Program-made: the position numbers and the translations under genes | The notes under the pieces: model-generated | What the model was told of the DNA's origin: nothing | The model's input: the letters and a program-made list of their open reading frames with translations, nothing else | The model's database searches: none | Assembly: GCA_973895155.1 (NCBI GenBank) | Contig: OZ316892.1 | Location: 30,605,328-30,669,327, forward strand | Reading direction: 5' to 3' | Source of the DNA: Marsupella aquatica | Lineage: Eukaryota > Plantae > Marchantiophyta | DNA length: 64,000 nt | Shown here: positions 19,070 to 54,045 of the stretch, piece after piece | How positions within the stretch are numbered: position 1 is the stretch's first letter | Layout of the letters: each line of letters starts with the position of its first letter

Positions 19070-19134
19070 TCCTACAACGTGTTCACCTACACAATTTAAA
19101 ATGTAAAGTATTAGTTAACAACAGTCCCAACTAG

Positions 19135-23633: not shown

Positions 23634-23810
23634 AGCTTCTGCACAGCACCCACAACCAAACAGGGAGAATCAGCACACTAAATTCAAAGTATCAATCAAT
23701 TTCATGCATATCCAACTATCCTAAACATCATTCCAGGCAGCAATTCCCGTTCTGTGACTCTGTGCAGGTAGTCATCCTCAACCTCATACTTGCCAATCGC
23801 CAGCTGTTGC

Positions 23811-34700: not shown

Positions 34701-35847
34701 TTCACATCCGCACTAATCACCTTTCGCAAAGAGTTGCAATCACCTTCCGCAATACCAGGAAGCTTGCTCCCTCTCGTTCAATGCCTTCTGCAGCATGAGC
34801 GATCACCTCTGCCGAAGCAACTTCAATCGAACACACAGCAACGGGGCGGGCAGTGACAACATTGACAGTGAACGTTGGACTCTACTCAAACAACCTCAAA
34901 GCTGTCACAAAAGAACGAGGAAACATTGAGGCAGAAAACAAAGTCCCTAGCGCCAGGCAACCAAAGTATCGGGAAACCAAAGGATCGGGACCAAAGGAAG
35001 GGACGACATGCCATTCCAACAACGGGAAGGGGGAACGGGACGCGGGAACGGGCAATTTTTTGATGGTGGGGATGGATGCCAACGATCCAATGGTCCCTAA
35101 ACCCCCATCCCCTTAACATGCAACCCCCGACCCTTCACATCAAACCCCCCCTTAACCCCCTTTAGTGAAAACCCAGCCACCCCCTAGCCTTGACATATAA
35201 ACCCCCTAATGTGCTTAGGACAACTCGACTGTGGCCACACTATGTTTGCAATGCCAGGGTCATCCATTTAGAGCGCCGCTTGCAAGCTTTGGCTCTCAAG
35301 ATCCTCCCAAGGCAGCAAACAAGTTAGGGTTCACGGTCCATGTTCCTTTACCCTAAACCGTTGCGTCACTATTTCAATCGAGTGTTCTTCGGCTGGACGT
35401 GCCCCTTTACTGACCCACACCCCCTTGAGACCGGTACAAATCTACCTTTGTGCATCTCGGCCTTTTATAGATGGATTTAGTAATGGCCAAGAATATGTTG
35501 ACCATCCCTCTGTAGTCCACCCTCCATGAACCTCACTTCATTAAACCCAAAATCTTTTTGGTCACAAAATAAGGCCATTTAATGAGTTATGCCCCTTGCT
35601 ATCACCCTCTTTATAGAATTACCCCTCCTCAGCATAAGTGGTCATTACCCATGATGTGCTAGACTATTCATCCTTCACAAAGTAGCAAGGTTACTTTTCA
35701 TAGTCTTTTAGTGAACCATAAAACACTAATAGTCTTTTGTAGTCTTCAACAAAACCGGTGCAATGGGTATGAGTTGTTTTAAGTATGGAAAAAGGACTTA
35801 GTGGGCTTAGTCCTATAAGGTATGGTCTAAATTGCCCCGGTTTCTAC

Positions 35848-36316
35848 CTATCCAAATGGCAGAGAGGGATCAACCCTATCCAAATGGCGGATAGGGATCA
35901 TCCCCATCCAAATGGTGGACAAAGATCATCTCTATCCAAACGGTGGACAGGGATCATCCCTATCCAAATGGTGGACAGGGATCATCCCTATCCAAAAGCC
36001 GGACAAGGATCATCCCCATCCAAACGTTGGACAGGGATCTCTGCCAAAATGATGGATAGTGTCTATCACGGCGGACAGGGATCATCCCTATCCAAATGGC
36101 GGACAAGGATCATCCCTATCCAAAGGATGGACAGGGATCATCCCTATCCAAAATCCGGACAGGGATCATCCCCATCCAAACGGTGGACAGGGATAATCTC
36201 TATCCAAACGGTGGACAGACATCATTCTTATCCAAAATCTGGACAGGGATCATCCATATCCAAACAGTGGACAGGGATCATCCCTATCCAAAAGCCGGAC
36301 AGGGATCATCCCCACC
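35848..36316. repeat. 28-bp quasi-palindromic tandem repeat array, right part
   Basis: About 16 copies of GGACAGGGATCATCCCTATCCAAANNNN, continuing the 19135-19653 array and cut by TGTCAC at 36317. Confidence 0.92.
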
Positions 36317-37400
36317 TGTCACGCGATTGACATGGGTCTTAACACCAAAAACGTCACTATGGGTGTCAAAACCATCTCCTTGTACCTGAGGATCACGAAG
36401 GGATGTTGTGAAGGCCGGTAAACACCAATTTATGCCCTTAACACCAAACTAGATCATAGCCAGACTCCATCACACATCACCCAAGCTCAATCCCAAGGAA
36501 CCAAGGTTGGGGATCAGGTCTACGCTCATGATAGTTCTAGTGAGAAGGGGTCTTCATATCGGGCCCGTACACACAGGGCCTAGCGCTACGGTGCGCACAG
36601 GTCTATACGTATGCTATGGTGCGTCCCATGGCTCCCTAAACCCAAGAAACCCCCCAGCTCAAGCCGATTCCCGCAGGTTTCGCGCTTGGCGAGGCCGTTT
36701 CCGCGGCTTAGCGGCATGGGACGCTGCTAACCTTCTACTACTACTATTAACATTTTACACACATATACTGGACAGATCCTTCATCGGGTCATGAGATACG
36801 TAGCCGGCCTAATCTAGGCCTTCCCCTGTCTTCCCCTCCGTCTTGTTAGGTATGTTTGGATTCCGCCGCCGGAATGATCCCCAATAGGCTTGGTTAAGCC
36901 GCTAAGACCTCTCTCAGCTCGACACATCCAACTCTCACTCCCCTGCTTACTTTCCTTCCCTTTGGTTGATGTGGGCACTCTTCACACAAGTTAATGCGAC
37001 ACACAAATAGCAAAATGACTCATTCTGACTGAGTCATACCATGCACTTGCCATACAAACAGTACATCTCATACACAAGTTCTGCGAACTAAGCCGTGAGG
37101 CCAACTCTATTCAGCTCTTAGGCATGAGGAAACATGAATATACACAAGGGTCACTGTATGACTAACCGAGAGCTTCTCGTACTACTTGATCCCAGCCCGG
37201 CTGGTGCAAACTAAAAACTTGCTAAAGAAGAGGCCCTGAGCTCCCCGCTGCCCAGGTACTTATCCTGGCAGTGGATCCGCCATTCTTTGCATCGTAAGCC
37301 TAATCTACTTAACAGTAATCTACTTGCCCGAATCTACCTATGTACAGCAAGGCAGGAGCACAAGTGTTGCTCCTACCAGTGGGACCGCAATCCCACTAAG

Positions 37401-38477
37401 CTAAGTGTCAGGGCCGCTCCTGGTCCTGATCCTAATCCTAAACTTGGAGATCAGCGCCCGCCCTGCCCACTCACGCCTCCTCCCTAAAAGGAACGGCGCC
37501 CTTGCACCGTCACGACACCGGTGGTGGATCCTTAATGGACGCCCCAACGCTTCCTCCTCAGCCACTGCCGTAGGCTCATTCTCTGACAGATTACCTGCCC
37601 TTGACTGAGTCAACTCTCCATCGGCCTGACTGGGTCCACCATCGGCGTCGGCATCGGTTACGGCCTCAGCCTCGGCTACGGTCTCCCCGGCCTGCTCAAG
37701 AGGCGGATCTGGAATACCGGCCTCATTACTGAGTAGTTCGGCTTGGGCCGCACCACCCCCACCTGTGATGATAGCGGGATCTATTGCCGTATTCATGCCG
37801 GAGGATGGTGCTGGTTCTACCTCTTTGGTCACCACGGCTTGTGGAGTCGGATTACTCCTTGACCCTGAAGGTTTCCGCTTTTTCTTCTTTTCTGGTTCGG
37901 CAGCTGGTCCCTTCCCCTTCCCACTTACTTCCGGCACTGGTGCAGTTGGCGCGGCTTTTTCTTCGGCCAGTACCACTCCTGGTAACTTGGTTGCCCCAAT
38001 TGGAGTTGGGCCTGATGAAGACAAGCACTTAAATACTGCGGCTTGTTTCTTTAGCCGCTCCGTTTGGTTGTCGGCCCGCCGCTGGAGGTTCTCCATCTTC
38101 CTCGTGATTTCCTCCAACTCCTCCTGGATCTCATCCAGGTCCTTGCGTGCCTCCTCTAGTTCCTTCTGGGCTTCCTCCCGTTCTTGTTTCAAGGTAGTCC
38201 TCTCCTCCTGGGTTGCTCTTAGCTCCTTGTTGAGCTCTGCAATGATGACAGACTCCATCTGGTTCATCTTGGCGTAAGTCTGTTCGAGCATCTCGTCCTT
38301 CTCCCTTAGGTCGGCCTTGAAGCTGGCCGTCAGGGACGCAAGCTCCTGCTGCAGCGCCATAATCCCTTGATAGGATTTCCCTAACTCGGCCTCCTTCTGC
38401 TCAAGGGCTCCGCGGATTTTCTAGAGCTCCCCCTTCAACGCCCATTCCTTTCTTTGGGTCTCCGCCATGGCCCGGCT
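37401..38477 (-). pseudogene. C-terminal part of the LTR-encoded ORF in the solo LTR
   Basis: Homologous to 41245-42216. A 1-bp G deletion near 37543 removes the normal stop. Confidence 0.9.
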
Positions 38478-38592
38478 TGTGATGCCTAGACAGGAATCAC
38501 TCGGCCGGTTAAGTGGGTAAAGCAGGAAGGCACCCTAGGAACACCTTAGTATAGTGACAAAACAAGGAAAATATAAACAATTAGGGGCAACC

Positions 38593-41500
38593 ATGGAACC
38601 CGGGCAGAGGCCGGAGGTAAGGCTGAGGGTGAAAACCCGATTAGGGTTAGGGCGCGTTAAGCGTCGGCGGCTAGGAAGGATCAACGGGAAGAAGGACCGG
38701 CAGAGGAGAGGGGTAAGGAGCGCTTGCAGGAGATGGTGGCTCATTTGCGAGCACGAACTAGGCAGACGACTACGGGAGGCCAACTACTGTCAGCTGCTTA
38801 GGCAAGCACTCGGGGAGAGAGTAGATACCGACGATCAACCTAAGGAGGGTATGAGCAACATCAATCAAGCGGCACATTTCTGGGGATGCCTGTTCGAACG
38901 GGCGACTGAGTACATCAAGACTTACGAGGACGAGGAGTCAGAAAGGGCAGCTCGAGAATGGCAGGAGCTCGCTCGATTGTGGGAGCTGCAAAAGACGGCT
39001 TTCTTAGGAGGCGAACTCATCAAGGACGAGTTCCTGTGGACGCCTACTTCCAATCAACTCGACGATCTTCTGTTTTGCAAGGACAGCGTCGTCGGCATCC
39101 GAGAGGCCATCAAGAACTGCAACGACATACACTGGGAATTAAAGGGTAGCACGGAAAGGTGGACCCAGGCAACGGTGCTAGGAGAAACCTCCACGGCAGC
39201 AGAGATGAAGAGGAAGGGAGCCGTCAACGATGAAGCCACCCCGGCAAAAAGAACGAGGTCGGCGGCACCAAAGAAGCCAGCCGAGCAGCAGAGCAGGAGG
39301 CAGGGAGAAGCCGAAGAGGAGGAGGTCGATCCCATCAAGGCCATTCCAACCAGGGATGACACCTGGAAGGGCTGGGCGGCAACCCTACCGGTGGAGGTGC
39401 AACTACATTTTGCACGGGAGGAGGATGCATGCTTTACGGCCATGCAGACCAAGAAGTACCAAGGCTTCATGGCCGGATCCGGCTTGGAGGCCTTTGTAAG
39501 ATTACCATGGCTGAAGCCGGAGGTACCGGAGTCAGACCTATTAGAATTCGTGGGGTCATGGGAACCCGAGACCAATTGCACGAGGATATATGGGAAGGAT
39601 TTCTATCTTACTCCCAAGGTGATTGCCGAAGTGTTTGGCTTGCCGATGGGCAATAAGACCAAAGTTGATACCAGGAAGACCTTGCCTGACAAGGAGTTCC
39701 GGTCGTTCCCCGGGCCATCAACGAAGAATGGCTTCTTCCGGAACACCTGCACCAACCCGCACATAGGAGAGATGATCGACTTCTTGCGGGTGACCATGCA
39801 TTGTAACTTGCCGAGGGCAGAGATCGGCAAGGCACAGGTCTATCTGGCAGAAAGGCCAGACCCAAGCCGGGACTACAACGGGTACCTCCTCAACCAATTG
39901 AAGAAGATCTTAAAGGAGGAGCAGCAGGTAATCGGCATGGGGAGCGTGTCTCGGCTTGGCTATCACATGCCGCTGTTGTGCCGGTATGCCAGAGGTCAGA
40001 CTTTTGCCCCGGTACTTCCCCTGCAGGTAAGGGCACCCGAGGAAGCTCCAACGCCGAGGCCGTTGGCTGAGAAGCCTCAACCACCTGTTAGTCCTACGAT
40101 CGAGCAGGTGTTTAGGCCCAGGAAGGAAGACTTGCCGATGCAGCAACCAGGCATGCAGAGTCTGCTGAAACTACTGGAGAAAGAAAAGAAATCGGCATCG
40201 GCAACAACAACGGCAACGGCAACAATGCAGGACACTACTACAGAGGTAGGCCTACACCGGCTCACAAGAGAAAACCCCTTTGCTGGAGACAAGGAGAGAA
40301 TCAGGCCGGAATCCAAGCCAGGTGTTCGAATGTACGTGGGAACCTCAAGCTCTGAATCTGAGGCAGAATTGCCTGAAGCTCCTACCGAGGAAGAGGAGAG
40401 GGAGAAGCCGGAAATCCAAGAGGTAGAGGAGGCAGTGGAGGACTGCAGCCATGATAATTCCGGCTATGGGTCGGACCATCACGTTCCAGGAGTAAGGACC
40501 TGTGGCCGGTTTGTCCCCACACTTCCAAGGGTAGTGCGAGGGGACCCCAACCAGCAGAGTAGCCCTGAGTCTCCCCCACCAGATGTTGCTCCCCCGAGCT
40601 TCGACGGCATAAAACAGACGGTGCAGGAATTTCAGGAGCGAATCAAGCAGGAGGAAGAGGCCGCCCTGGCTAAGGAAAAGGATTTACCAGGAGGAGATTG
40701 GCCGGAGGACATCAGGCGGCTAGCCGAAAAAGGAAGCAAACCTCTAGCCACGATTGAAGAGATCCGCAGGACGGCTTGGGAGCAGAGGCCACGATGGGCG
40801 ATGCCGATCACTTCTACTTACTCCACCTACGCTAAGAATAGAGCCATGGAGTATGGTGAGATGTGTGGGGAACTTGCGCTCGGCATCTTTGGAGAGGAGT
40901 TGGAGGTAGGACCCTTTTTCCATAGGGAGCAGTTGGAGAAGCACCAATTAGAAGAAGCGGTGGCTTTAGAGAGAAGCAAGAAGGACGAGGTCATTCGGCG
41001 GCTTAGGAGGATGGAAGCCGAGATTGAAGATCTAAGGGCGGCCAAGAAAGCCCAAGATGAACTGCGGATTAAACGACATGAGCTGAACATCATGCAGGGG
41101 CAGTTGGACGCCGCGCAGGCTGATAATCAGAATATCAAGGATAAACTGACTCAGACGCAGGAAGAGTTGGCCGACACGATCAAAGAAAGGGAAAAGTGGA
41201 AGCAAGAGCTGAAGAATACAGAGGAGGCCCACATAACAACCAACAGCCGGGCCATGGCGGAGACCCAAAGAAAGGAATGGGCGTTGAAAGGGGAGCTCGA
41301 GAAAATCCGCGGAGCCCTTGAGCAGAAGGAGGTCGAGTTAGGGAAATCCTATCAAGGGATTATGGCGCTGCAGCAGGAGCTTGCGTCCCTGACGGCCAGC
41401 TTCAAGGCCGACCTAAGGGAGAAGGACGAGATGCTCGAACAGACTTACGCCAAGATGAACCAGATGGAGTCTGTCATCATTGCAGAGCTCGACAAGGAGC

Positions 41501-42216
41501 TAAGAGCAACCCAGGAGGAGAAGGCTACCTTGAAGAAGGAATTGGAGGAAGCCCACAGGGAGCAGGAGGAGGCCAAAAACGAGCTGGAGGGGGCACGTAA
41601 GGACCTGGATGAAACCCAAGAGGAGTTGGAGGAAATCACGAGGAAGATGGAGAACCTACAGCGGCGGGCCGACAACCAAACAGAGCGGCTGAAGAAACAA
41701 GCCGCAGTATTTAAATGCTTAGCTGCAGCAGGTCCATCTCCTGTTGGGACAAACCAGTTACCAGGGGTGGTAATTGCCGAAGGACAAGCCGCGCCACCTG
41801 CACCAGTGCCGGAGGTAAGTGGGAAGGGGAAGGGACCAGCTGCCGAGCCACCAACGAAGAAGAAGCGGAAACCTTCAGGGTCAAGGAGTAATACGACTTC
41901 ACAGGCCGTGGTGATCAAGGAGGTAGACCCAGCACCGACCCCAGACAGGGTCACGGCTAAGGATCCAACTACCCTAGGGGAAGGGGAGGCCGAAGCCGTG
42001 GGAGTGGCTGAAGCCGAAGCCGTGGGGGTGGCTGAAGCCGAAGCCGTGGGTATTGCCGAGGCCGGTGTCGAGGCTGAAGCCGAAGGTGGACCCAGTCAGG
42101 CCGAGGGAGAGTTGACTCGGTCAAGGGCAGGTAATCTGTCAGTAGGCGGGCCAACGGCAGTGGCTGCGGAGGAAGTGTTGGGGGCATCCATTGAGGATCC
42201 ACCACCGGTGTCGTGA
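38593..42216 (+). CDS. LTR-encoded ~1200-aa protein (PMD/plant-transposon-like segment, acidic/Pro-rich linker, long coiled coil), 5' LTR copy
   Basis: Open from GTG 38554, first ATG 38593, alternative ATG 38851. Motif LLEFVGSWEPETNCTRIYGKDFYLTPKVIAEVFGLP at ~39540-39645. Heptad-rich region ~40930-41710. Confidence 0.85.
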   Translation: MEPGQRPEVRLRVKTRLGLGRVKRRRLGRINGKKDRQRRGVRSACRRWWLICEHELGRRLREANYCQLLRQALGERVDTDDQPKEGMSNINQAAHFWGCLFERATEYIKTYEDEESERAAREWQELARLWELQKTAFLGGELIKDEFLWTPTSNQLDDLLFCKDSVVGIREAIKNCNDIHWELKGSTERWTQATVLGETSTAAEMKRKGAVNDEATPAKRTRSAAPKKPAEQQSRRQGEAEEEEVDPIKAIPTRDDTWKGWAATLPVEVQLHFAREEDACFTAMQTKKYQGFMAGSGLEAFVRLPWLKPEVPESDLLEFVGSWEPETNCTRIYGKDFYLTPKVIAEVFGLPMGNKTKVDTRKTLPDKEFRSFPGPSTKNGFFRNTCTNPHIGEMIDFLRVTMHCNLPRAEIGKAQVYLAERPDPSRDYNGYLLNQLKKILKEEQQVIGMGSVSRLGYHMPLLCRYARGQTFAPVLPLQVRAPEEAPTPRPLAEKPQPPVSPTIEQVFRPRKEDLPMQQPGMQSLLKLLEKEKKSASATTTATATMQDTTTEVGLHRLTRENPFAGDKERIRPESKPGVRMYVGTSSSESEAELPEAPTEEEEREKPEIQEVEEAVEDCSHDNSGYGSDHHVPGVRTCGRFVPTLPRVVRGDPNQQSSPESPPPDVAPPSFDGIKQTVQEFQERIKQEEEAALAKEKDLPGGDWPEDIRRLAEKGSKPLATIEEIRRTAWEQRPRWAMPITSTYSTYAKNRAMEYGEMCGELALGIFGEELEVGPFFHREQLEKHQLEEAVALERSKKDEVIRRLRRMEAEIEDLRAAKKAQDELRIKRHELNIMQGQLDAAQADNQNIKDKLTQTQEELADTIKEREKWKQELKNTEEAHITTNSRAMAETQRKEWALKGELEKIRGALEQKEVELGKSYQGIMALQQELASLTASFKADLREKDEMLEQTYAKMNQMESVIIAELDKELRATQEEKATLKKELEEAHREQEEAKNELEGARKDLDETQEELEEITRKMENLQRRADNQTERLKKQAAVFKCLAAAGPSPVGTNQLPGVVIAEGQAAPPAPVPEVSGKGKGPAAEPPTKKKRKPSGSRSNTTSQAVVIKEVDPAPTPDRVTAKDPTTLGEGEAEAVGVAEAEAVGVAEAEAVGIAEAGVEAEAEGGPSQAEGELTRSRAGNLSVGGPTAVAAEEVLGASIEDPPPVS
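41990..42085 (+). repeat. 24-bp coding minisatellite (AEAEAVGV)
   Basis: GCCGAAGCCGTGGGAGTGGCTGAA units, with one extra unit in the 3' LTR (52873-52993). Confidence 0.85.
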
Positions 42217-43141
42217 CGGTGCAAGGGCGCCGTTCCTTTTAGGGAGGGCGGACGTGGAGGGAGGAGGCGTGAGTGGGCAGGGCGGGCATGGATCTCCACG
42301 TTTAGGATTAGGATCAGAACCAGGAGCGGCCCTGACACTTAGCTTAGTGGGATTGCGGTCCCACTGGTAGGAGCAACACTTGTGCTCCTGCCTTGCTGTA
42401 CATAGGTAGATTCGGGCAAGTAGATTACTGTTAAGTAGATTAGGCTTACGATGCAAAGAATGGCGGATCCACTACCAGGATAAGTACCTGGGCAGCGGGG
42501 AGCTCAGGGCCTCTTCTTTAGCAAGTTTTTAGTTTGCACCAGCCGGGCTGGGATCAAGTAGTACGAGAAGCTCTCGGTTAGTCATACAGTGACCCTTGTG
42601 TATATTCATGTTTCCTCATGCCTAAGAGCTGAATAGAGTTGGCCTCACGGCTTAGTTCGCAGAACTTGTGTATGAGATGTACTGTTTGTATGGCAAGTGC
42701 ATGGTATGACTCAGTCAGAATGAGTCATTTTGCTATTTGTGTGTCGCATTAACTTGTGTGAAGAGTGCCCACATCAACAGAAGGAAGGAAAGTAAGCAGG
42801 GGAGTGAGAGTTGGATGTGTCGAGCTGAGAGAGGTCTTAGCGGCTTAACCAAGCCTATTGGGGATCATTCCGGCGGCGGAATCCAAACATACCTAACAAG
42901 ACGGAGGGGAAGACAGGGGAAGACAGGGGAAGGCCTATATTAGGCCGGCTACGTATCTCATGACCCGATGAAGGATCTGTCCAGTATATGTGTGTAAAAT
43001 GTTAATAGTAGTAGTAGAAGGTTAGCAGCGTCCCATGCCGCTAAGCCGCGGAAACGGCCTCGCCAAGCGTGAAACCCGCAGGAATCGGCTTGAGCTGGGG
43101 GGTTGCTTGGGTTTAGGGAGCCATGGGACGCACCACATTTT

Positions 43142-43159
43142 TGGCGCTAGATGGAGGGG
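43142..43159 (+). promoter_or_regulatory. Primer-binding site
   Basis: TGGCGCTAGATGGAGGGG, 4 nt after the LTR. Resembles the PBS of Tat-type elements (probably tRNA-Arg; identity not verified). Confidence 0.8.
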
Positions 43160-43206
43160 GCATTTCTTAAGCCGTGAGATATGAAGTTAGAACGGAAGCG
43201 TAGGTA

Positions 43207-46200
43207 ATGACTGACCTTACGCCGAGGGAAGAAAGAGTGATTCAACGGGAGAGAGCTCGACTGCAGCAGCTCGCCGGGTGGCATGATACACAGCGACTGA
43301 GAGGGGCAGAAAGAGCTGGTAGCTCCGAAACTGGAAGTGGCGTCGAAGAAGACATACCAGAAGAAGAGTCGGTAAGGAGAAGTGAGTCTCCAACCGACAT
43401 GGGGGAACCAGAGGCACGGCCAGACGAGAGGCCAGGGACCAGATTGAGCCAGCGGTCGCGCATACGTTACAAGGCATTTCATGGGAGAGGAGATGAGGAT
43501 CCGGACGAATGGTTGGATGATTTCGAGGGAACCGCTGCAGCAAATGGAGAATCGGCCATCAAGATGCAGATTCTTCCCGGCCTGTTCAAGGGTGAGGCTA
43601 GGCCTTGGTACAGAGCATTAGATGTGGAAGATCAAGCCATCTGGGATATCTTCAAAACACTCTTTGTTAAGGAGTTTCGACCCATTGGAACTTCAGAACT
43701 AGCAGTGCTGAAGTTGGGACAACTTCGGTTCAAGGAGAACAAATCCTTCAGGAAGTTCTTGCAACGCTTTCAGAAACTGGTAAGACGTACAAAGACCAAT
43801 GCATCTGAAGGTATGCAACTTCAATGGTTGGTGAATGCTTTGCCACAGAAGATGAGTTTTGCAATTAGGAAGGAGAACCCGGAGACTTTAGCCGAAGCAA
43901 TTAAGGATATTCAATTATACATTAATGCAGATATCACAAGCCGGAAGAAACAGCTTAAGTCTGAGAGTTCCTCATCAGAGGAGGGATCACCCCATAAGAA
44001 AAAAGATAAGAAGAAGAAACATTCCAAGAAGTCTAGAAGTGATAAGTCAAGCTCGAATAGTGGGAGTAGCAAGAGTGAGTCATCTTCTAGTTCTGAAGAA
44101 GAAAAAACTAGGAAAAGGAAGGGCAGAAGGAGAGGGAAGACGAAAGTCAAGATGGAGGCTAAGCCACCAGATAACATCGTAGCCCTTACCGAGCAACTTA
44201 AGGCTATCATTGCAGAGGTAAAACCAAAGAAGAAGGTAGTACAGGAGGATAGCTCTGTATGGTGTGCCTTATGTTATAAAACCGGACACCATAAAGATGC
44301 TTGTCCTAAGCTTAATACTAATCATGTTCGGCATGTGGCCGAGATCAGACCATGTCAGGGAGAAGTAGAGTACTTTTTGGGAGATGCCGCTGATAGTGTT
44401 TTCGGCATCAGTGAGACTGGAGCACGAGACCTATCCAACAGACCTGCATCTCTATGGTCAGGGTTAAGGAACAATCCAGGAGAGATGTATCCTCGGATTA
44501 TTCAGAACCCGTCAGTACCTCTTAGGCCGAATGTGCAAAGATTTGCGGCGTGCTATAATTGTGGTCAACCTGGCCATTTTGCTAGAGAATGCCCGAATGC
44601 ACGCAAACAGGGTGATGGACAACCAGCTCAGCTATGTATGGGATGCCGACAGGAAGGTCATATGCTAGGGCAATGTCCTACTTGGTTGGCAGGCCTGGCC
44701 GTAAATCATAAGCTTTTGCCGATCAAGATCTTACCGCCAGGTACTACCCCCGAAGGAGTTCAAATCAACCACATCGAACTAGGATGGCAAGAGGATGCCG
44801 AGGCAGAGTTCGTACCATCTGATGATGAGGCCGAAGCCCTATCAACCTTCTCAGAGGAGGATTTAGATCATAATTGCTACCGGGTCTCTACTCGATCTAC
44901 CAGAAGGAAGGAAAGGTGGGATGGGCTGGCCAAAAATAAAGGGAAGGTTACGGAGGAAAGGATCGACTCTTCGTCAACATCAACAGAAGGAGAAGGGAGG
45001 GCTCCGGCAATACAGGTAAGCCATGAGCCCACCAGTGAAACCAATCCTTCACAAGATAGCGACTTCAATCGAGATCATCCTAAGTTGTTCTACCCCTCTG
45101 TTACGGCTAGTGTTAAGGAACAACTAAGAGAATTAGAAACCCTGGAGAATACCGAAGCCATTGCCAAGGATGTAAAACGAGCAAAAGCATTGTTTGCTTC
45201 GGAAGACCCAACAGCTGTGGAGACTAGCGTGGCAAAACTGGCCGAATCCAAGACGGAAACACCACCAGAAGAGAAGCCGATTGTTCCCTATGACCTGGCT
45301 AAAGATGTACTAGAATCTAGAGTCTCGGCAACAGTAGGTCAACTATTGAAAAATAGCCCGTACTTCCGGAAGCAATTAAGGAAGGCTATTCTCGGCAAGC
45401 CGAGATTACCCAAGGTAGCAACCAGATCCGACGTACTAATGATAGAAGAAGATCAAGGAGCCCCAGCATTACCATTAATGATTCAAGGAGAATTATTACT
45501 ACGGGTACCCATCGATGGAGGATCAGGGGTATGTATTATGATTGATTCAACAGCAAAAGGGTGGGGTCTAACACCGGAGATGACTGGAAGAGTGTTGAAC
45601 ATGGCCAATGGATATCAGGTCATTCCTACGGGAGTGTTAACCGGCATCAAGACAGAGATAGGAGGTATCTTCTTTAGCATTAACTATGTAGTAATGAAAC
45701 CGGTAAATCCTACGTCATTCCGGCTATTGATTGGTAGGCCATGGCTGTACCTAGCCGAGGTAATAGAAGATTGGGGTAAAAAGCAGTTCACTTTCGGGAC
45801 CCCCTCTATCACGGTATCCTGGGACACTAAGGATGACCGTAGGAAAAGCATAAGGGAAGTAGATGGGTACGATAGTGGACTGGAGTCAGCCGATGAAGTA
45901 CGTTGGTTAGAATGCTTCACTAACCTAACCGAAGAAGGTGTCTTTGGACCAGAGGTACCCCCCAGCGGATTATGGCAAGAACCAATGGAAGGTGACTTGG
46001 AAGAAGAAGACGAAGAGGTCGTGGACTGCTTTACAATAGAATCCACCTTTTTAGCTGCAATTCCGGAGGAAGTTAAGGATGTAGACCAATTGGATGAAAC
46101 GGCTAAGTGGGGAGCAGTAGCAGGGACAGTGGATTTTCTGCAGGCGTTGTGGCAGAGCCGACGGGGTCCACAACGCCATCGATCATCGGCAAGGAATTAA
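43207..46200 (+). CDS. gag: Gag-protease polyprotein (capsid, three CCHC knuckles, aspartic protease)
   Basis: FHGRGDEDPDEWL and GEARPWY capsid motifs. Knuckles CALCYKTGHHKDAC, CYNCGQPGHFAREC and CMGCRQEGHMLGQC. Protease IDGGSGVCIM and LLIGRPWL. Confidence 0.95.
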   Translation: MTDLTPREERVIQRERARLQQLAGWHDTQRLRGAERAGSSETGSGVEEDIPEEESVRRSESPTDMGEPEARPDERPGTRLSQRSRIRYKAFHGRGDEDPDEWLDDFEGTAAANGESAIKMQILPGLFKGEARPWYRALDVEDQAIWDIFKTLFVKEFRPIGTSELAVLKLGQLRFKENKSFRKFLQRFQKLVRRTKTNASEGMQLQWLVNALPQKMSFAIRKENPETLAEAIKDIQLYINADITSRKKQLKSESSSSEEGSPHKKKDKKKKHSKKSRSDKSSSNSGSSKSESSSSSEEEKTRKRKGRRRGKTKVKMEAKPPDNIVALTEQLKAIIAEVKPKKKVVQEDSSVWCALCYKTGHHKDACPKLNTNHVRHVAEIRPCQGEVEYFLGDAADSVFGISETGARDLSNRPASLWSGLRNNPGEMYPRIIQNPSVPLRPNVQRFAACYNCGQPGHFARECPNARKQGDGQPAQLCMGCRQEGHMLGQCPTWLAGLAVNHKLLPIKILPPGTTPEGVQINHIELGWQEDAEAEFVPSDDEAEALSTFSEEDLDHNCYRVSTRSTRRKERWDGLAKNKGKVTEERIDSSSTSTEGEGRAPAIQVSHEPTSETNPSQDSDFNRDHPKLFYPSVTASVKEQLRELETLENTEAIAKDVKRAKALFASEDPTAVETSVAKLAESKTETPPEEKPIVPYDLAKDVLESRVSATVGQLLKNSPYFRKQLRKAILGKPRLPKVATRSDVLMIEEDQGAPALPLMIQGELLLRVPIDGGSGVCIMIDSTAKGWGLTPEMTGRVLNMANGYQVIPTGVLTGIKTEIGGIFFSINYVVMKPVNPTSFRLLIGRPWLYLAEVIEDWGKKQFTFGTPSITVSWDTKDDRRKSIREVDGYDSGLESADEVRWLECFTNLTEEGVFGPEVPPSGLWQEPMEGDLEEEDEEVVDCFTIESTFLAAIPEEVKDVDQLDETAKWGAVAGTVDFLQALWQSRRGPQRHRSSARN

Positions 46201-49200
46201 ATACCAAGGGATCGGCATACAAGCCGATTACGAGGGCAGAACAAATTGAGGCCCTATTAGAAGCCGAGAGAGCACAGCGGCCTAACTCTCAGGAGCAAGA
46301 GGTGGATGAGATGGACAGACACGATCCAGAGCCAAGGCAGGAAGGAGAGCCGACCACTAATTCAAAACCGAATAGACCGGTAAGGGGACAATCTATGGAC
46401 ACCAAGGAAGGGACCGACTCGGCTAGTCCAGCCGAGATCCCAGTTTATGGAGGTATGAGATTAGAGAGACTGGAAGCCGAACTGGACCCGAATTTGAAGA
46501 AGCAGATTAATATGATCCAAGCACGGCAATATCGGAAGCTCGACTTAGGAGAGGGAAGAGAACTGAACTTAGGGAGAAACCTAGCACCTGAGCTCGAGAA
46601 AGAGATCAGTGACTTATTGATTAAATTTCAGGATGTGTTTGCATGGAGTCCCCAAGATCTAAAGGGCGTAGATCCAACACTAGGGGAACATCGAATTGAT
46701 CTCATGTTAGGAGCCAAATCATTTCGACAACCAATTCGAAGGATGAACCCGAAGTATTCCCGGCTAGTCAAAACAGAAATCGACAAACTAGTGGAAGCTG
46801 GATTCATCACTCCAGTCCTGCATTCAGACTGGGTGTCTCCAATTGTGATAGTTCCCAAAAAAGCGGGACCCGATGGTAAAACCAAGATCCGGGTTTGTCA
46901 GGATTACAGGAAGCTGAATGAAGCAACATTAAAAGACCATTTTCCTTTACCGTTTACTGATATGGTACTAGACATGGTAGCCAGTCATGAACTATATTCA
47001 TTCATGGATGGATACTCTGGTTATAACCAAATCAGGATTCGGCAGGAAGACCAAATCAAGACGGCCTTCATCACGGAATGGGGGATCTATGTCTTCAATC
47101 GTATGCCGTTTGGACTCTGCAACGCACCAGCTATGTTCCAACGATTAATGGTGAACATTTTTCATGATTACTTGAGAAAGTTCATGGAAATCTTCATTGA
47201 TGACTTTGCAGTATTCGGGAAGGCATCGAAACATGCTAAATACCTCAGGAAAACCTTCATGAGATGTAGGGAGGTGGGTCTCAAGTTACACCCAGATAAA
47301 TGTTTTTTTGCAGTAACCGAGGGGGTGCTACTAGGTCACAAGGTATCAAGGAAGGGCATTGAGATTGACAAAGGTAAGCTAGCAGTATGGCTAGATATCA
47401 TGCAACCTAAGAACATAAAGGATGTAAGATCCTTCTTGGGATGCATTGGTTACTATCGCCGGTTCATCAAGGATTTTGCCAAGCTAGCTTTACCATTAAC
47501 CAATATGCTCAAGGCAGGAGCAGACTTCGAACCCACACCCGAACGAGTCACAGCGGTGGTAGAATTGAAGCAGATGTTAGTAGAGGCCCCAGTCATGATA
47601 GCACCGGACTGGAACAAAGATTTTCATGTTTTTGTAGATGTCTCGGGCTTCTGTATTGGCTCAGTACTAAGTCAGTTGGATGAGAAAAGAAGGGACCATC
47701 CCATATACTTCGCAAGCCGTCAGCTTGCCGATGCCGAACGGAACTACTCTACCACGGAAAGAGAAGCATTAGGAGTCATTTATTCTTGTAAAAAGTTTAG
47801 GCATTATTTACTAGGGTACAAGGTAATCTTTCATACTGATCATGAAAGTTTGAAGTACCTAGTCAATAAGCCGGACCTTACAGGCAGAGTAGCAAGATGG
47901 ATTTTGCTATTACAGGAGTTTGACTATGAGCTGAGGATCAAGCCGGGAAAGTTACATGCCAATGCCGACTTCTTTTCAAGGATCACAGGTACACCTGCCA
48001 CGGATTGCATCGATGATCGATTCCCCGACGAGGAGCTATTCGTTGTGGAAATAGCTGGTACATGGTACCCTGAGATTTTACAATTTCTCAGCACTTCCAG
48101 ATTACAGCCAGGATTAAGCCGAGAGCAAGCCGCAGTCTTTGTGCGGAAGGTCAGACAGTATCAGTGCATTAAAGGCATACTGCACAAGCATGGAATCAAC
48201 GGCACGATTCAAAGGTGTTTGGAGAAGACAGAGGTAAAACGAGTCCTACGGGCCATGCATGGAGAGGAGGCCGGAGGACATTTTGCCCCAGTAACCACGT
48301 CTAAGAAGATATTAAATGCCGGTTACTGGTGGCCCACCTTGCACAAAGATGTCTATCAGTTTATCAAACAATGCGATCCTTGTCAACGAGCGGGCGGACC
48401 AAGGGCGTCCACCAGGCATCCACTGCACCCTATTCTACCTCTGGCACCATTCGAGAAGTGGGGTATTGATTACATTGGACCTCTGAAACCACTGACCCAC
48501 CCTCGACGGAACAAGTACATAATCCTGGCTACGGATTATGCAACTAAATGGGTAGAGGCCAGACCAACAACGAAGGATGATGCAATTACTACGGCTAGAT
48601 TCATGTATGAGCAGATCTTCACCAGGTATGGAGCACCCCTAGAATTAGTTAGTGATAGAGGAACCCATTTTTTGAATGATATAATTAGTCGTTTAAATGA
48701 GCAGTATTTAGTTAAACATAGGCCTACTACTCCCTACCATCCAAAGGCAAACGGGTTGACAGAACGAGCAAACGGAATCATAGGAAAGATATTGAACAAG
48801 ACAGTAGCTCAGAACAAACTCGATTGGGATGATAAATTGTTTGCTGCTGTTTTTGCTTACAATCTGGCCTATAAATCCACTACCGGTCATACACCCTTCT
48901 TCTTAACCTTTGGACAAGAAGCCCTGGTACCCACGCAACTTGAGATACCGACATTTCAAGTTACAATTGAGGAAAGAGCCTCAGCGGAGGAGAGCCTAAA
49001 GGAGCGAGAATATAGGTTAGAAGCTTTAGAGGAAGCGAGAATGATTTCAGCCGAGAGAGTAGAATATAGACAGAATATCATGAAGCAGCAGTATGATAAA
49101 AGGTTAAAAGTAGTTAGTATTCATACCGGTGATCTTGTGCTACTTTATGACAGTAGGTATAGTAGGTTTCCAGGGAAGCTTTACACTCGCTGGTTAGGAC

Positions 49201-49373
49201 CCTTTCGAGTAACCATGATGTTCCCCAATGGCTCCGTGCAATTGGCCAACATTACGGGAGAGGTATATCCAGTTCGCATCCATTATGACCGCCTCAAGAA
49301 ATACTATATGGACGAAGATGAAGTTGTTCGCGAGGACGCTTCACAATTAAGTGGGGAGCTATGTGATGCCTAG
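46107..49373 (+). CDS. pol: Pol (RT, RNase H, integrase) in the -1 frame relative to gag-PR
   Basis: WVSPIVIVPKK, DYRKLN, MPFGLCNAP, FIDDF, VDVSG, YSTTEREAL, TDHESL, H..GGH..C..CQ, WGIDYIGP, SDRGTHF and NGLTERAN. The stop lies inside the 3' LTR. Confidence 0.97.
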   Translation: MGSSSRDSGFSAGVVAEPTGSTTPSIIGKELNTKGSAYKPITRAEQIEALLEAERAQRPNSQEQEVDEMDRHDPEPRQEGEPTTNSKPNRPVRGQSMDTKEGTDSASPAEIPVYGGMRLERLEAELDPNLKKQINMIQARQYRKLDLGEGRELNLGRNLAPELEKEISDLLIKFQDVFAWSPQDLKGVDPTLGEHRIDLMLGAKSFRQPIRRMNPKYSRLVKTEIDKLVEAGFITPVLHSDWVSPIVIVPKKAGPDGKTKIRVCQDYRKLNEATLKDHFPLPFTDMVLDMVASHELYSFMDGYSGYNQIRIRQEDQIKTAFITEWGIYVFNRMPFGLCNAPAMFQRLMVNIFHDYLRKFMEIFIDDFAVFGKASKHAKYLRKTFMRCREVGLKLHPDKCFFAVTEGVLLGHKVSRKGIEIDKGKLAVWLDIMQPKNIKDVRSFLGCIGYYRRFIKDFAKLALPLTNMLKAGADFEPTPERVTAVVELKQMLVEAPVMIAPDWNKDFHVFVDVSGFCIGSVLSQLDEKRRDHPIYFASRQLADAERNYSTTEREALGVIYSCKKFRHYLLGYKVIFHTDHESLKYLVNKPDLTGRVARWILLLQEFDYELRIKPGKLHANADFFSRITGTPATDCIDDRFPDEELFVVEIAGTWYPEILQFLSTSRLQPGLSREQAAVFVRKVRQYQCIKGILHKHGINGTIQRCLEKTEVKRVLRAMHGEEAGGHFAPVTTSKKILNAGYWWPTLHKDVYQFIKQCDPCQRAGGPRASTRHPLHPILPLAPFEKWGIDYIGPLKPLTHPRRNKYIILATDYATKWVEARPTTKDDAITTARFMYEQIFTRYGAPLELVSDRGTHFLNDIISRLNEQYLVKHRPTTPYHPKANGLTERANGIIGKILNKTVAQNKLDWDDKLFAAVFAYNLAYKSTTGHTPFFLTFGQEALVPTQLEIPTFQVTIEERASAEESLKEREYRLEALEEARMISAERVEYRQNIMKQQYDKRLKVVSIHTGDLVLLYDSRYSRFPGKLYTRWLGPFRVTMMFPNGSVQLANITGEVYPVRIHYDRLKKYYMDEDEVVREDASQLSGELCDA
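46131..46190 (+). promoter_or_regulatory. Predicted -1 programmed ribosomal frameshift signal
   Basis: In-phase G GAT TTT (46131-46137), 5-nt spacer, perfect 10-bp stem GGCGTTGTGG/CCACAACGCC. Loop GCCGA is complementary to downstream TCGGC. Confidence 0.75.
49349..49361 (+). promoter_or_regulatory. Polypurine tract
   Basis: AAGTGGGGAGCTA immediately before TGTGATG. The same context is seen at 14832-14866 in the related remnant. Confidence 0.85.
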
Positions 49374-52300
49374 ACAGGAATCACTCGGCCGGTTAAGTGG
49401 GTAAAGCAGGAAGGCACCCTAGGAACACCTTAGTATAGTGACAAAACAAGGAAAATATAAACAATTAGGGGCAACCATGGAACCCGGGCAGAGGCCGGAG
49501 GTAAGGCTGAGGGTGAAAACCCGATTAGGGTTAGGGCGCGTTAAGCGTCGGCGGCTAGGAAGGATCAACGGGAAGAAGGACCGGCAGAGGAGAGGGGTAA
49601 GGAGCGCTTGCAGGAGATGGTGGCTCATTTGCGAGCACAAACTAGGCAGACGACTACGGGAGGCCAACTACTGTCAGCTGCTTAGGCAAGCACTCGGGGA
49701 GAGAGTAGATACCGACGATCAACCTAAGGAGGGTATGAGCAACGTCAATCAAGCGGCACATTTCTGGGGATGCCTGTTCGAACGGGCGACTGAGTACATC
49801 AAGACTTACGAGGACGAGGAGTCAGAAAGGGCAGCTCGAGAACGGCAGGAGCTCGCTCGATTGTGGGAGCTGCAGAAGACGGCTTTCTTAGGAGGCAAAC
49901 TCATCAAGGACGAGTTCCTGTGGACGCCTACTTCCAATCAACTCGACGATCTTCTGTTTTGCAAGGACAGCGTCGTCGGCATCCGAGAGGCCATCAAGAA
50001 CTGCAACGACATACACTGGGAATTAAAGGGTAGCACGGAAAGGTGGACCCAGGCAACGGTGCTAGGAGAAACCTCCACGGCAGCAGAGATGAAGAGGAAG
50101 GGAGCCGTCAACGATGAAGCCACCCCGGCAAAAAGAACGAGGTCGGCGGCACCAAAGAAGCCAGCCGAGCAGCAGAGCAGGAGGCAGGGAGAAGCCGAAG
50201 AGGAGGAGGTCGATCCCATCAAGGCCATTCCAACCAGGGATGACACCTGGAAGGGCTGGGCGGCAACCCTACCGGTGGAGGTGCAACTACATTTTGCACG
50301 GGAGGAGGATGCATGCTTTACGGCCATGCAGACCAAGAAGTACCAAGGCTTCATGGCCGGATCCGGCTTGGAGGCCTTTGTAAGATTACCATGGCTGAAG
50401 CCGGAGGTACCGGAGTCAGACCTATTAGAATTCGTGGGGTCATGGGAACCCGAGACCAATTGCACGAGGATATATGGGAAGGATTTCTATCTTACTCCCA
50501 AGGTGATTGCCGAAGTGTTTGGCTTGCCGATGGGCAATAAGACCAAAGTTGATACCAGGAAGACCTTGCCTGACAAGGAGTTCCGGTCGTTCCCCGGGCC
50601 ATCAACGAAGAATGGCTTCTTCCGGAACACCTGCACCAACCCGCACATAGGAGAGATGATCGACTTCTTGCGGGTGACCATGCATTGTAACTTGCCGAGG
50701 GCAGAGATCGGCAAGGCACAGGTCTATCTGGCAGAAAGGCCAGACCCAAGCCGGGACTACAACGGGTACCTCCTCAACCAATTGAAGAAGATCTTAAAGG
50801 AGGAGCAGCAGGTAATCGGCATGGGGAGCGTGTCTCGGCTTGGCTATCACATGCCGCTGTTGTGCCGGTATGCCAGAGGTCAGACTTTTGCCCCGGTACT
50901 TCCCCTGCAGGTAAGGGCACCCGAGGAAGCTCCAACGCCGAGGCCGTTGGCTGAGAAGCCTCAACCACCTGTTAGTCCTACGATCGAGCAGGTGTTTAGG
51001 CCCAGGAAGAAGGACTTGCCGATGCAGCAACCAGGCATGCAGAGTCTGCTGAAACTACTGGAGAAAGAAAAGAAATCGGCATCGGCAACAACAACGGCAA
51101 CGGCAACAATGCAGGACACTACTACAGAGGTAGGCCTACACCGGCTCACAAGAGAAAACCCCTTTGCTGGAGACAAGGAGAGAATCAGGCCGGAATCCAA
51201 GCCAGGTGTTCGAATGTACGTGGGAACCTCAAGCTCCGAATCTGAGGCAGAATTGCCTGAAGCTCCTACCGAGGAAGAGGAGAGGGAGAAGCCGGAAATC
51301 CAAGAGGTAGAGGAGGCAGTGGAGGACTGCAGCCATGATAATTCCGGCTATGGGTCGGACCATCACGTTCCAGGAGTAAGGACCTGTGGCCGGTTTGTCC
51401 CCACACTTCCAAGGGTAGTGCGAGGGGACCCCAACCAGCAGAGTAGCCCTGAGTCTCCCCCACCAGATGTTGCTCCCCCGAGCTTCGACGGCATAAAACA
51501 GACGGTGCAGGAATTTCAGGAGCGAATCAAGCAGGAGGAAGAGGCCGCCCTGGCTAAGGAAAAGGATTTACCAGGAGGAGATTGGCCGGAGGACATCAGG
51601 CGGCTAGCCGAAAAAGGAAGCAAACCTCTAGCCACGATTGAAGAGATCCGCAGGACGGCTTGGGAGCAGAGGCCACGATGGGCGATGCCGATCACTTCTA
51701 CTTACTCCACCTACGCTAAGAATAGAGCCATGGAGTATGGTGAGATGTGTGGGGAACTTGCGCTCGGCATCTTTGGAGAGGAGTTGGAGGTAGGACCCTT
51801 TTTCCATAGGGAGCAGTTGGAGAAGCACCAATTAGAAGAAGCGGTGGCTTTAGAGAGAAGCAAGAAGGACGAGGTCATTCGGCGGCTTAGGAGGATGGAA
51901 GCCGAGATTGAAGATCTAAGGGCGGCCAAGAAAGCCCAAGATGAACTGCGGATTAAACGACATGAGCTGAACATCATGCAGGGGCAGTTGGACGCCGCGC
52001 AGGCTGATAATCAGAATATCAAGGATAAACTGACTCAGACGCAGGAAGAGTTGGCCGACACGATCAAAGAAAGGGAAAAGTGGAAGCAAGAGCTGAAGAA
52101 TACAGAGGAGGCCCACATAACAACCAACAGCCGGGCCATGGCGGAGACCCAAAGAAAGGAATGGGCGTTGAAAGGGGAGCTCGAGAAAATCCGCGGAGCC
52201 CTTGAGCAGAAGGAGGTCGAGTTAGGGAAATCCTATCAAGGGATTATGGCGCTGCAGCAGGAGCTTGCGTCCCTGACGGCCAGCTTCAAGGCCGACCTAA

Positions 52301-54045
52301 GGGAGAAGGACGAGATGCTCGAACAGACTTACGCCAAGATGAACCAGATGGAGTCTGTCATCATTGCAGAGCTCGACAAGGAGCTAAGAGCAACCCAGGA
52401 GGAGAAGGCTACCTTGAAGAAGGAATTGGAGGAAGCCCACAGGGAGCAGGAGGAGGCCAAAAACGAGCTGGAGGGGGCACGTAAGGACCTGGATGAAACC
52501 CAAGAGGAGTTGGAGGAAATCACGAGGAAGATGGAGAACCTACAGCGGCGGGCCGACAACCAAACAGAGCGGCTGAAGAAACAAGCCGCAGTATTTAAAT
52601 GCTTAGCTGTAGCAGGTCCATCTCCTGTTGGGACAAACCAGTTACCAGGGGTGGTAATTGCCGAAGGACAAGCCGCGCCACCTGCACCAGTGCCGGAGGT
52701 AAGTGGGAAGGGGAAGGGACCAGCTGCCGAGCCACCAACGAAGAAGAAGCGGAAACCTTCAGGGTCAAGGAGTAATACGACTTCACAGGCCGTGGTGATC
52801 AAGGAGGTAGACCCAGCACCGACCCCAGACAGGGTCACGGCTAAGGATCCAACTACCCTAGGGGAAGGGGAGGCCGAAGCCGTGGGAGTGGCTGAGGCCG
52901 AAGCCGTGGGAGTGGCTGAAGCCGAAGCCGTGGGGGTGGCTGAAGCCAAAGCCGTGGGTATTGCCGAGGCCGGTGTCGAGGCTGAAGCCGAAGGTGGACC
53001 CAGTCAGGCCGAGGAAGAGTTGACTCGGTCAAGGGCAGGTAATCTGTCAGTAGGCGGGCCAACGGCAGTGGCTGCGGAGGAAGTGTTGGGGGCGTCCATT
53101 GAGGATCCACCACCGGTGTCGTGACGGTGCAAGGGCGCCGTTCCTTTTAGGGAGGGCGGACGTGGAGGGAGGAGGCGTGAGTGGGCAGGGCGGGCACGGA
53201 TCTCCACGTTTAGGATTAGGATCAGAACCAGGAGCGGCCCTGACACTTAGCTTAGTGGGATTGCGGTCCCACTGGTAGGAGCAACACTTGTGCTCCTGCC
53301 TTGCTGTACATAGGTAGATTCGGGCAAGTAGATTACTGTTAAGTAGATTAGGCTTACGATGCAAAGAATGGCGGATCCACTACCAGGATAAGTACCTGGG
53401 CAGCGGGGAGCTCAGGGCCTCTTCTTTAGCAAGTTTTTAGTTTGCACCAGCCGGGCTGGGATCAAGTAGTACGAGAAGCTCTCGGTTAGTCATACAGTGA
53501 CCCTTGTGTATATTCATGTTTCCTCATGCCTAAGAGCTGAATAGAGTTGGCCTCACGGCTTAGTTCGCAGAACTTGTGTATGAGATGTACTGTTTGTATG
53601 GCAAGTGCATGGTATGACTCAGTCAGAATGAGTCATTTTGCTATTTGTGTGTCGCATTAACTTGTGTGAAGAGTGCCCACATCAACAGAAGGAAGGAAAG
53701 TAAGCAGGGGAGTGAGAGTTGGATGTGTCGAGCTGAGAGAGGTCTTAGCGGCTTAACCAAGCCTATTGGGGATCATTCCGGCGGCGGAATCCAAACATAC
53801 CTAACAAGACGGAGGGGAAGACAGGGGAAGACAGGGGAAGGCCTATATTAGGCCGGCTACGTATCTCATGACCCGATGAAGGATCTGTCCAGTATATGTG
53901 TGTAAAATGTTAATAGTAGTAGTAGAAGGTTAGCAGCGTCCCATGCCGCTAAGCCGCGGAAACGGCCTCGCCAAGCGTGAAACCCGCGGGAATCGGCTTG
54001 AGCTGGGGGGTTGCTTGGGTTTAGGGAGCCATGGGACGCACCACA
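49362..54045 (+). repeat. 3' LTR (4684 bp)
   Basis: Copy of 38478-43137 with a 24-bp insertion, followed by TSD CGGCT. Confidence 0.96.
49477..53124 (+). CDS. LTR-encoded protein, 3' LTR copy
   Basis: Open from GTG 49438, first ATG 49477. Nearly identical to the 5' copy, with 8 extra aa. Confidence 0.85.
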   Translation: MEPGQRPEVRLRVKTRLGLGRVKRRRLGRINGKKDRQRRGVRSACRRWWLICEHKLGRRLREANYCQLLRQALGERVDTDDQPKEGMSNVNQAAHFWGCLFERATEYIKTYEDEESERAARERQELARLWELQKTAFLGGKLIKDEFLWTPTSNQLDDLLFCKDSVVGIREAIKNCNDIHWELKGSTERWTQATVLGETSTAAEMKRKGAVNDEATPAKRTRSAAPKKPAEQQSRRQGEAEEEEVDPIKAIPTRDDTWKGWAATLPVEVQLHFAREEDACFTAMQTKKYQGFMAGSGLEAFVRLPWLKPEVPESDLLEFVGSWEPETNCTRIYGKDFYLTPKVIAEVFGLPMGNKTKVDTRKTLPDKEFRSFPGPSTKNGFFRNTCTNPHIGEMIDFLRVTMHCNLPRAEIGKAQVYLAERPDPSRDYNGYLLNQLKKILKEEQQVIGMGSVSRLGYHMPLLCRYARGQTFAPVLPLQVRAPEEAPTPRPLAEKPQPPVSPTIEQVFRPRKKDLPMQQPGMQSLLKLLEKEKKSASATTTATATMQDTTTEVGLHRLTRENPFAGDKERIRPESKPGVRMYVGTSSSESEAELPEAPTEEEEREKPEIQEVEEAVEDCSHDNSGYGSDHHVPGVRTCGRFVPTLPRVVRGDPNQQSSPESPPPDVAPPSFDGIKQTVQEFQERIKQEEEAALAKEKDLPGGDWPEDIRRLAEKGSKPLATIEEIRRTAWEQRPRWAMPITSTYSTYAKNRAMEYGEMCGELALGIFGEELEVGPFFHREQLEKHQLEEAVALERSKKDEVIRRLRRMEAEIEDLRAAKKAQDELRIKRHELNIMQGQLDAAQADNQNIKDKLTQTQEELADTIKEREKWKQELKNTEEAHITTNSRAMAETQRKEWALKGELEKIRGALEQKEVELGKSYQGIMALQQELASLTASFKADLREKDEMLEQTYAKMNQMESVIIAELDKELRATQEEKATLKKELEEAHREQEEAKNELEGARKDLDETQEELEEITRKMENLQRRADNQTERLKKQAAVFKCLAVAGPSPVGTNQLPGVVIAEGQAAPPAPVPEVSGKGKGPAAEPPTKKKRKPSGSRSNTTSQAVVIKEVDPAPTPDRVTAKDPTTLGEGEAEAVGVAEAEAVGVAEAEAVGVAEAKAVGIAEAGVEAEAEGGPSQAEEELTRSRAGNLSVGGPTAVAAEEVLGASIEDPPPVS

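Follow-up and report, generated by a model that had tools for sequence, protein, structure and literature searches.

Can the long terminal repeat (LTR) of a plant retrotransposon carry a protein-coding gene, and what would such a protein do for its element? This question is raised by a stretch of 64,000 nucleotides from the liverwort Marsupella aquatica (assembly GCA_973895155.1, contig OZ316892.1, positions 30,605,328 to 30,669,327 of the forward strand; in the following "the window", with positions counted from its first letter). It contains a full-length Ty3/Gypsy retrotransposon with a long open reading frame (ORF) in each LTR (Table 1). An earlier note made from the sequence alone had read this ORF as an LTR protein in which a Plant Mobile Domain (PMD)-type domain is fused to an SMC-like coiled coil, and had suggested an anti-silencing or targeting function. 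We find that the ORF lies inside the LTR and is under purifying selection. Its conserved domain is predicted to fold like the DNA-bound part of the anti-silencing protein VANC21. This predicted fold, together with a short motif found throughout the element, supports a candidate role in anti-silencing.

The location of the ORF was established from the repeat borders. Self-comparison of the window gave a direct repeat (38478-43137 and 49362-54045) of 99% identity. The repeat units start with TG, end with CA and are accompanied by a target-site duplication, a primer binding site (PBS) and a polypurine tract (PPT), which bears out the designation as LTR protein. Between the two LTRs there are 14 substitutions, and the 3' LTR has an in-frame insertion of 24 nt; the difference amounts to 0.3%. 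The element is inserted in an older solo LTR of its own family (4633 bp), which is split by the insertion and has its own duplication TATGC at 36610-36614 and 56821-56825. Since the two independent duplications give the same borders, the ORF lies wholly inside the LTR; likewise, the PPT lies in front of the ORF, which also places it inside. A tandem or assembly artefact as the source of the repeat was ruled out by the two duplications and by a left junction found within one contig of run X1, possibly the source sample. The gene is thus duplicated in both LTRs and has left a remnant in the solo LTR. The latter has a mosaic structure: its identity to the 5' LTR is about 98% apart from a much more diverged part corresponding to 41400-42200, which suggests recombination between subfamilies.

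The motifs quoted in the earlier note (GLEAFVRLPW at 39481-39510, LLEF...FGLP at 39538-39645) all lie in this single plus-strand ORF. Its length is far from that of chance frames, which reached at most 369 codons in 300 base shuffles of the LTR. Compared to the solo LTR, residues 105-900 carry 28 synonymous and 19 replacement changes (dN/dS 0.19, p 2e-8). For the domain 7 synonymous and 2 replacement changes were counted (dN/dS 0.08), and for residues 922-1066 of the coiled coil dN/dS was 0.20. Codons 1-104 showed no sign of selection (2 synonymous, 5 replacement changes), so that Met105 is the probable start; Met19 was rejected as start on these same changes, which are few and make this a weak argument. 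In contigs from four runs, each of a different study, 34 of the 40 domain differences listed were synonymous, compared to 22% of the possible changes, with 88 further rows beyond the listing; a single frameshifting insertion was listed as well. The ORF is therefore under purifying selection.

Relatives were found among 78 metagenome loci (L-numbered) that had been collected by their integrase. In ten of them a sense ORF, or a piece of one, with a common 210-residue domain lies behind pol. A profile of six members, built without the window protein, placed the three window copies top among the non-family frames (3092 frames, E 0.018-0.035) and gave the window domain 14.8 bits, a score reached by none of 5000 shuffles. 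Profile searching extended the family to 987 clusters at E<=0.001. With a profile of the best 150 relatives the window domain scored 18.5 bits (reached by 0 of 10,000 shuffles), a test that is slightly circular as the window protein was one of the seven query rows in the 987-cluster search. Membership is remote, with 12-23% identity, and the link is made by profiles: direct tblastn and phmmer searches with the ORF against the 78 loci gave nothing significant. Protein searches seeded with words of the ORF covered 657 and 3111 candidates without yielding a relative, which reflects sensitivity rather than absence, and viral contigs gave no match. A second conserved block present in 11 of 47 long family members was not found in the window protein, and none of the 150 family hits has a counterpart of the window protein's residues 105-215 or 715-810.

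Comparison to named families removed part of the original assignment. The proposed relation to PF10536 (PMD) failed for the ORF (E<=1), for the domain (E<=10) and for all 64 relatives examined (E<=0.05), and PF10536 was not among the families listed for 114 relative rows (25 of 43 families). PF04195 (Transposase_28) matched neither the ORF, the domain nor any of the 64 relatives. For PF20167 (Transposase_32) the window protein gave no match, whereas two of the 64 relatives gave weak ones (E 0.005 and 0.014, 15.7-17.2 bits at a cut-off of 45). By sequence features this is weakly the nearest named family (ESM Atlas 0.89-0.90, 150 of 256 features shared), which we treat as a lead only; the family profile gave no score for the PF20167-bearing proteins P0036 and P0110. 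By eye, the stretch EF...IYGK...IAEVFG resembles the P0110 domain. PF03078 (Athila ORF1) gave no profile match above the cut-off, and DUF1985 none for the ORF, the domain or the 64 relatives, nor did it occur among the families listed (25 of 43). A different sense ORF of 252 codons was seen behind pol in a neighbouring clade (L017:7076-7831), with no credible Pfam match.

The predicted structure of the domain matches the fold of the DNA-bound domain of VANC21 (PDB 9lnk_A 295-550) over 188 residues. Foldseek searches against PDB and BFVD, a closer comparison of 40 chains and PDB sequence searches gave no meaningful match. VANC is described as structurally related to PMD-C/MAIN (bioRxiv 2024.09.27.615353; PMC13547354). 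The PMD-type identity of the domain is thus partly supported by the model, indirectly through VANC21 and at the level of the fold. It does not extend to PF10536 membership, and the W.PET word on which the identity had been based, present in the window protein at 39538-39645, is not conserved in the family alignment.

Outside the domain the claimed heptads were confirmed. For residues 800-1065 the hydrophobic periodicity of 3.5-3.67 scored 477 compared to 236 ± 55, a value reached by none of 500 shuffles; single windows were significant in 3 of 9 cases (28-residue) and 1 of 8 (35-residue, with a cruder score). The term SMC-like applies only to the predicted coiled coil: Walker A and LSGG patterns are absent from the ORF and no SMC profile matched. 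The basic clusters are real as well, yet they lie outside 39400-41710 (residues 288-1058), to which the protein had been assigned. KRKG and PAKRTR we take to be similar to nuclear localization signals, such that they are candidate import signals. The statement that the protein is not env-like holds by simple hydropathy: neither a signal peptide nor a transmembrane segment was seen, the maximum 19-residue hydropathy (1.11) falls in an Ala/Glu repeat, and the N-termini from Met19 and Met105 (0.16 and 0.75) are not hydrophobic.

VANC proteins act via short motifs that have accumulated in their own elements (PMC5735166), and we therefore looked for a family word. GCCGA, TCGGCA and AAGCCG were enriched in the three genes over synonymous-codon shuffles, with z values of 5.8-7.5 compared to null maxima of 3.7-3.9. 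With the tandem repeat excluded, both strands and several reading frames showed the enrichment; for pol alone it was not significant. The element has thus accumulated its own short motif, [A/T]GCCG(A), in dispersed form and without non-coding tandem arrays. Taken alone, the non-coding parts of the LTR have no outstanding repeated word. Other family members have other words. In the clade of L002-L009 it is TCCGGA (CCGGA 142 versus 54 in L004), and in L005 it is AGCGCT, which occurs visibly in short runs in non-coding parts. The most VANDAL-like array was seen in the 3' part of the L008 LTR (L008:1-1400), with 23 TCCGGA in 1.4 kb and internal duplications. When gag-pol only was considered, z exceeded 5 in 7 of 8 elements with the ORF in the LTR but in 1 of 15 others, in a control that left out 56 of the 78 loci with less than 1000 nt of long frames.

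The relatives also bear on the position of the gene. In eight of the ten loci (L002-L004, L006-L009, L019) a box and PPT of the window type directly follow pol and precede the ORF. In L004 and L008 the ORF also lies inside the LTR, as the bases that follow the PPT form inverted repeats with those preceding the PBS at the opposite contig end. L005 differs in that its box and PPT lie behind the ORF, followed by an LTR of about 1 kb and a PBS; here a tract-like run without box precedes the ORF. L024 is similar, with a contig that ends early. The two arrangements imply at least one move of the gene across the LTR border, in one direction or the other. A quick-method integrase tree of 48 rows, search hits only and with open basal forks, groups the window element and L001 together within a clade of 24 rows, in which Riccia rows, L005 and the ORF-in-LTR clade are also found. 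The PBS of the relatives is presumably of the Athila type.

Based on the fold and the word we propose that the conserved LTR-encoded protein binds [A/T]GCCG(A) through its VANC21-like domain and keeps the copies of its family unsilenced, a reading to which we assign about an even chance. Expression of the protein would be driven by a promoter located early in the LTR, for which the TATA-like word at 38572 and, in the relatives, TATA words and a shared GGTGAG are candidates. In the nucleus it would oligomerise through its coiled coil and bind many sites along every family copy, where it would lower DNA methylation or Polycomb marks. Protein and word would change together between families. The gene may have crossed the LTR border by a changed plus-strand priming site, and solo LTRs would thereby be able to supply the protein in trans.

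Several observations weigh against a link between word and ORF. The word shows no concentration in non-coding DNA. CpG preservation is no better than in the Copia element of the window. Seven of the eight ORF-in-LTR elements belong to one clade. Finally, L013 (952-7245) is enriched for ACCGG in gag-pol (31 versus 10) and has no family ORF in the 470 nt covered behind pol. This last locus also speaks for an explanation in which the protein is some other nuclear accessory factor (a transactivator, a particle helper or an RNA export factor) while the word arose independently, for instance from sites of host factors or from a loss of CpG that depends on context. It would agree with a word not concentrated in promoter-like parts, with the partial loss of the family's basic residues in the window protein, and with the extra protein of Grande, which is nuclear and has no known role (PMC7264820). 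We regard this as rather improbable, given that the word is missing from neighbouring elements of this genome, that words differing by family are poorly explained by a host-wide mutation bias, and that the sole fold match is a DNA-bound domain.

The insertion itself brings up targeting, since the element sits in a solo LTR of its own family and the target duplication AGCCG/CGGCT is one of the enriched words. A DNA-binding tether could guide the integration complex to the CG word and thereby direct new insertions into older family copies; the element has no chromodomain, and Phygy elements favour NCGN targets (PMC6317226). This is however a single insertion, and the duplication of the solo LTR, GCATA, contains no CG. 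Essential genes loaded with target words would moreover invite self-destruction, and the matched structure is that of an anti-silencer rather than of a targeting factor. We therefore hold a tether to be unlikely. Still less probable is a protein that binds the word to repress its element, in copy-number control or self-silencing as in the role first described for MAIN/MAIL1. Arabidopsis PMD proteins do act in silencing (PMC5418596), and a gene present in solo LTRs would act in trans and become more abundant as copies multiply. Against it stand the youth of the family (LTRs 0.3% apart), the very many variant contigs on it (38,160 in run X1, not a copy number) and the later explanation of transposable element (TE) release in mail1 as indirect (bioRxiv 2024.09.27.615353). 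An env-like protein or functionless passenger frame, to which the env position and coiled coil of the 3' LTR ORF and the broken solo LTR copy might point, is largely refuted by hydropathy, purifying selection and the family of 987 clusters, and is very improbable.

Among known systems, MMTV sag and HIV nef are retroviral genes in or overlapping U3, so that, as here, an accessory gene is duplicated with the LTR; they belong to animal retroviruses and encode much shorter, unrelated proteins. VANC21 and VANC6 of the Arabidopsis VANDAL elements (Mutator-like; PDB 9lnk; PMC5735166; PMC10398659) share with the window protein the fold and coiled coil (both predicted here), the coding by the element and enriched family-specific short words. 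The window gene, however, lies in a Ty3/Gypsy LTR rather than in a VANDAL/Mutator DNA transposon and has no DUF1985 match; its word holds CG and is dispersed through genes, whereas VANDAL words form non-coding tandem arrays, to which L005 is closer. The host is a liverwort, while VANC is described as dicot-specific (PMC13547354). The extra ORFs of Tat/Ogre elements with PMD (PMD-A clade) and coiled coil (PMC4408406; PMC5418596) have the same order of globular domain and coiled coil, in a non-chromovirus Ty3/Gypsy element with a Gag ORF separate from reverse transcriptase (RT). They are described as internal (5' sense or 3' antisense), as matching PF10536 and as part of seed-plant elements with an archaeal RNase H (aRH), whereas the window ORF is sense, inside the LTR and matches neither PF10536 nor, in its element, aRH. 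Athila ORF1/Transposase_32 (PF03078, PF20167; PMC11728184, PMC6317226) is likewise a sense ORF behind pol and provides the nearest named clusters by language-model features (0.89-0.90), but the window ORF lies downstream of the PPT and its protein has no profile match. The Retand/Grande ORFs with Transposase_28 and Smc-labelled coiled coils (PMC11963269; PMC7264820) are also coiled-coil accessory ORFs thought to be nuclear; they are antisense, internal and carry PF04195, none of which is true here. Reviews describe the function of the extra ORFs of plant Ty3/Gypsy elements as unknown (PMC7264820, PMC4408406), and whether PMD arose from a host gene or a Gypsy element is described as fully open (PMC5418596). 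An anti-silencing function of TE-encoded PMD-C is under test by the authors of bioRxiv 2024.09.27.615353.

Table 1. Features of the retrotransposon and of the solo LTR that it interrupts (window positions).
Feature	Positions	Strand	Remarks
Full-length Ty3/Gypsy non-chromovirus retrotransposon	38478-54045	+	15,568 bp; 5-bp duplication CGGCT at 38473-38477 and 54046-54050
5' LTR	38478-43137	+	4660 bp, TG...CA; ends TGTGATGC / GCACCACA are inverted repeats (7/8)
Accessory ORF in 5' LTR	38539-42216	+	1225 codons between stops; start probably at Met105 (38851), giving 1121 aa
Constrained N-terminal segment, residues 105-215	38851-39183	+	dN/dS 0.19; no match found
Basic clusters KRKG (39208-39219) and PAKRTR (39241-39258)	39208-39258	+	
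Conserved domain, residues 285-490	39391-40008	+	Remote member of unnamed retrotransposon ORF family; predicted VANC21-like fold
Predicted coiled coil, residues 800-1065	40936-41733	+	Proline-free
Basic cluster KKKRKP	41857-41874	+	Retained in diverged part of solo LTR
24-nt in-frame tandem repeat	41989-42050	+	More units in 3' LTR; unit contains GCCGA and AAGCCG
PBS TGGCGCTAGATGGAGGGG	43142-43159	+	After first LTR
gag, zinc knuckle, then protease-like stretch	43204-46200	+	Protease-like stretch by eye, without Pfam protease match
RT-RNase H-integrase (pol)	46107-49373	+	-1 frame; stop codon 12 nt inside 3' LTR
Conserved box GTTCGCGAGGACGC and PPT AAGTGGGGAG (49349-49358)	49326-49361	+	Within pol end, upstream of 3' LTR ORF
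3' LTR	49362-54045	+	4684 bp
Second intact ORF copy, in 3' LTR	49423-53124	+	1233 codons; 50 nt after pol stop
Same-family solo LTR, 5' piece (older)	54046-56820	-	ORF codons 1-905, 98% identical
Same-family solo LTR, 3' piece	36615-38477	-	Premature stop at codon 921, frameshift near end, more diverged middle
Dispersed motif [A/T]GCCG	38478-49361	.	107 of 444 CG dinucleotides; 8 of 183 in Copia element; 39 of 799 in 1-36500

The internal region has the order RT-RNase H-integrase without chromodomain, as in non-chromovirus Ty3/Gypsy elements. Pfam searches of the gag and pol frames gave no match for a chromodomain or a second RNase H; a single RNase H region was seen, and thus no additional archaeal RNase H as in the Tat clade. 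Against named proteins pol had its top identities in liverworts (64-65% for Calypogeia over part of the query and mostly 51-57% for Riccia), which by itself points to a liverwort or another bryophyte as the probable host. The PPT core TAAGTGGGGAGC (PPT copy at 49348-49359) recurs shortly ahead of RT, close to where the gag frame ends (46101-46115); this second copy is possibly a central priming site. Within the 94-nt gag/pol overlap, TTTTCTGCAG followed by G (46134-46144) resembles a 3' splice site, comparable to the protease/RT intron of Ogre; a simple pattern search found no phase-matched donor for it. In the LTR, TATA-like words occur at 38572, 42601 and 42936, and a cluster of four TGTA words, which we take to be a 3' end signal, occupies 42599-42687. 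L002-L004 and L007 have GAGTGGTGAG in common, a possible splice donor located after the TATA-like word and ahead of the ORF; the L005 version is GTTGGTGAG (L005:4200-4210) and the window version GGAGGTAAG at 38615. No GT..AG joint was found among the DNA-type contigs listed, and the 16 runs listed include no RNA run with the sequence.

The surroundings of the element are rich in other mobile DNA. The solo LTR is itself enclosed by what appears to be an LTR of a related family without ORF (about 58006 to 36400, minus strand), with the common word GGCGGCGGAAT..A.A.ATACCTA, giving three nested layers of related LTRs. At 15690-13600 (minus strand) a related Gypsy fragment with a 62% identical integrase has the same PPT box right behind pol, followed by a short LTR-like stretch without ORF. 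The Copia element that served as control for the word analysis (4327-10102, plus strand) has 143-bp LTRs of 99% identity and an interrupted pol. CACTA-like genes (Transposase_21, DUF4218, DUF4216) occupy 17012-27385 on the minus strand. Listed with them are a 490-codon frame without Pfam match, 28-nt subterminal-type repeat arrays in inverted orientation at 19.3 kb (19243-19653) and 36 kb (35791-36363), and a 22-nt array at 15.8 kb (15726-15997).

For retrotransposon biology the first consequence is that an LTR is able to hold a gene of 1100 residues, and surveys of internal regions would miss such genes. Moss Tat-like elements are reported without extra ORFs (PMC4408406), and an LTR location of the ORF may lie behind such reports. 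Literature phrase searches gave no paper on an ORF inside plant LTRs, and one linking VANC to LTR retrotransposons in Marchantia returned a single review. More tentatively, and with considerable doubt on our side, the family could represent a widespread bryophyte lineage of LTR retrotransposons with a self-recognition of the VANC type built into the LTR: a family-specific binder of VANC/PMD fold, its own CG word throughout the element, and solo LTRs that supply the protein in trans. Such a lineage would be older than, and possibly the source of, the PMD and VANC of seed plants. The predicted VANC-like domain and its candidate target word form a testable pair, with a second pair in the related clade. 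If true, sequence-specific anti-silencing would extend from dicot DNA transposons to bryophyte retrotransposons.

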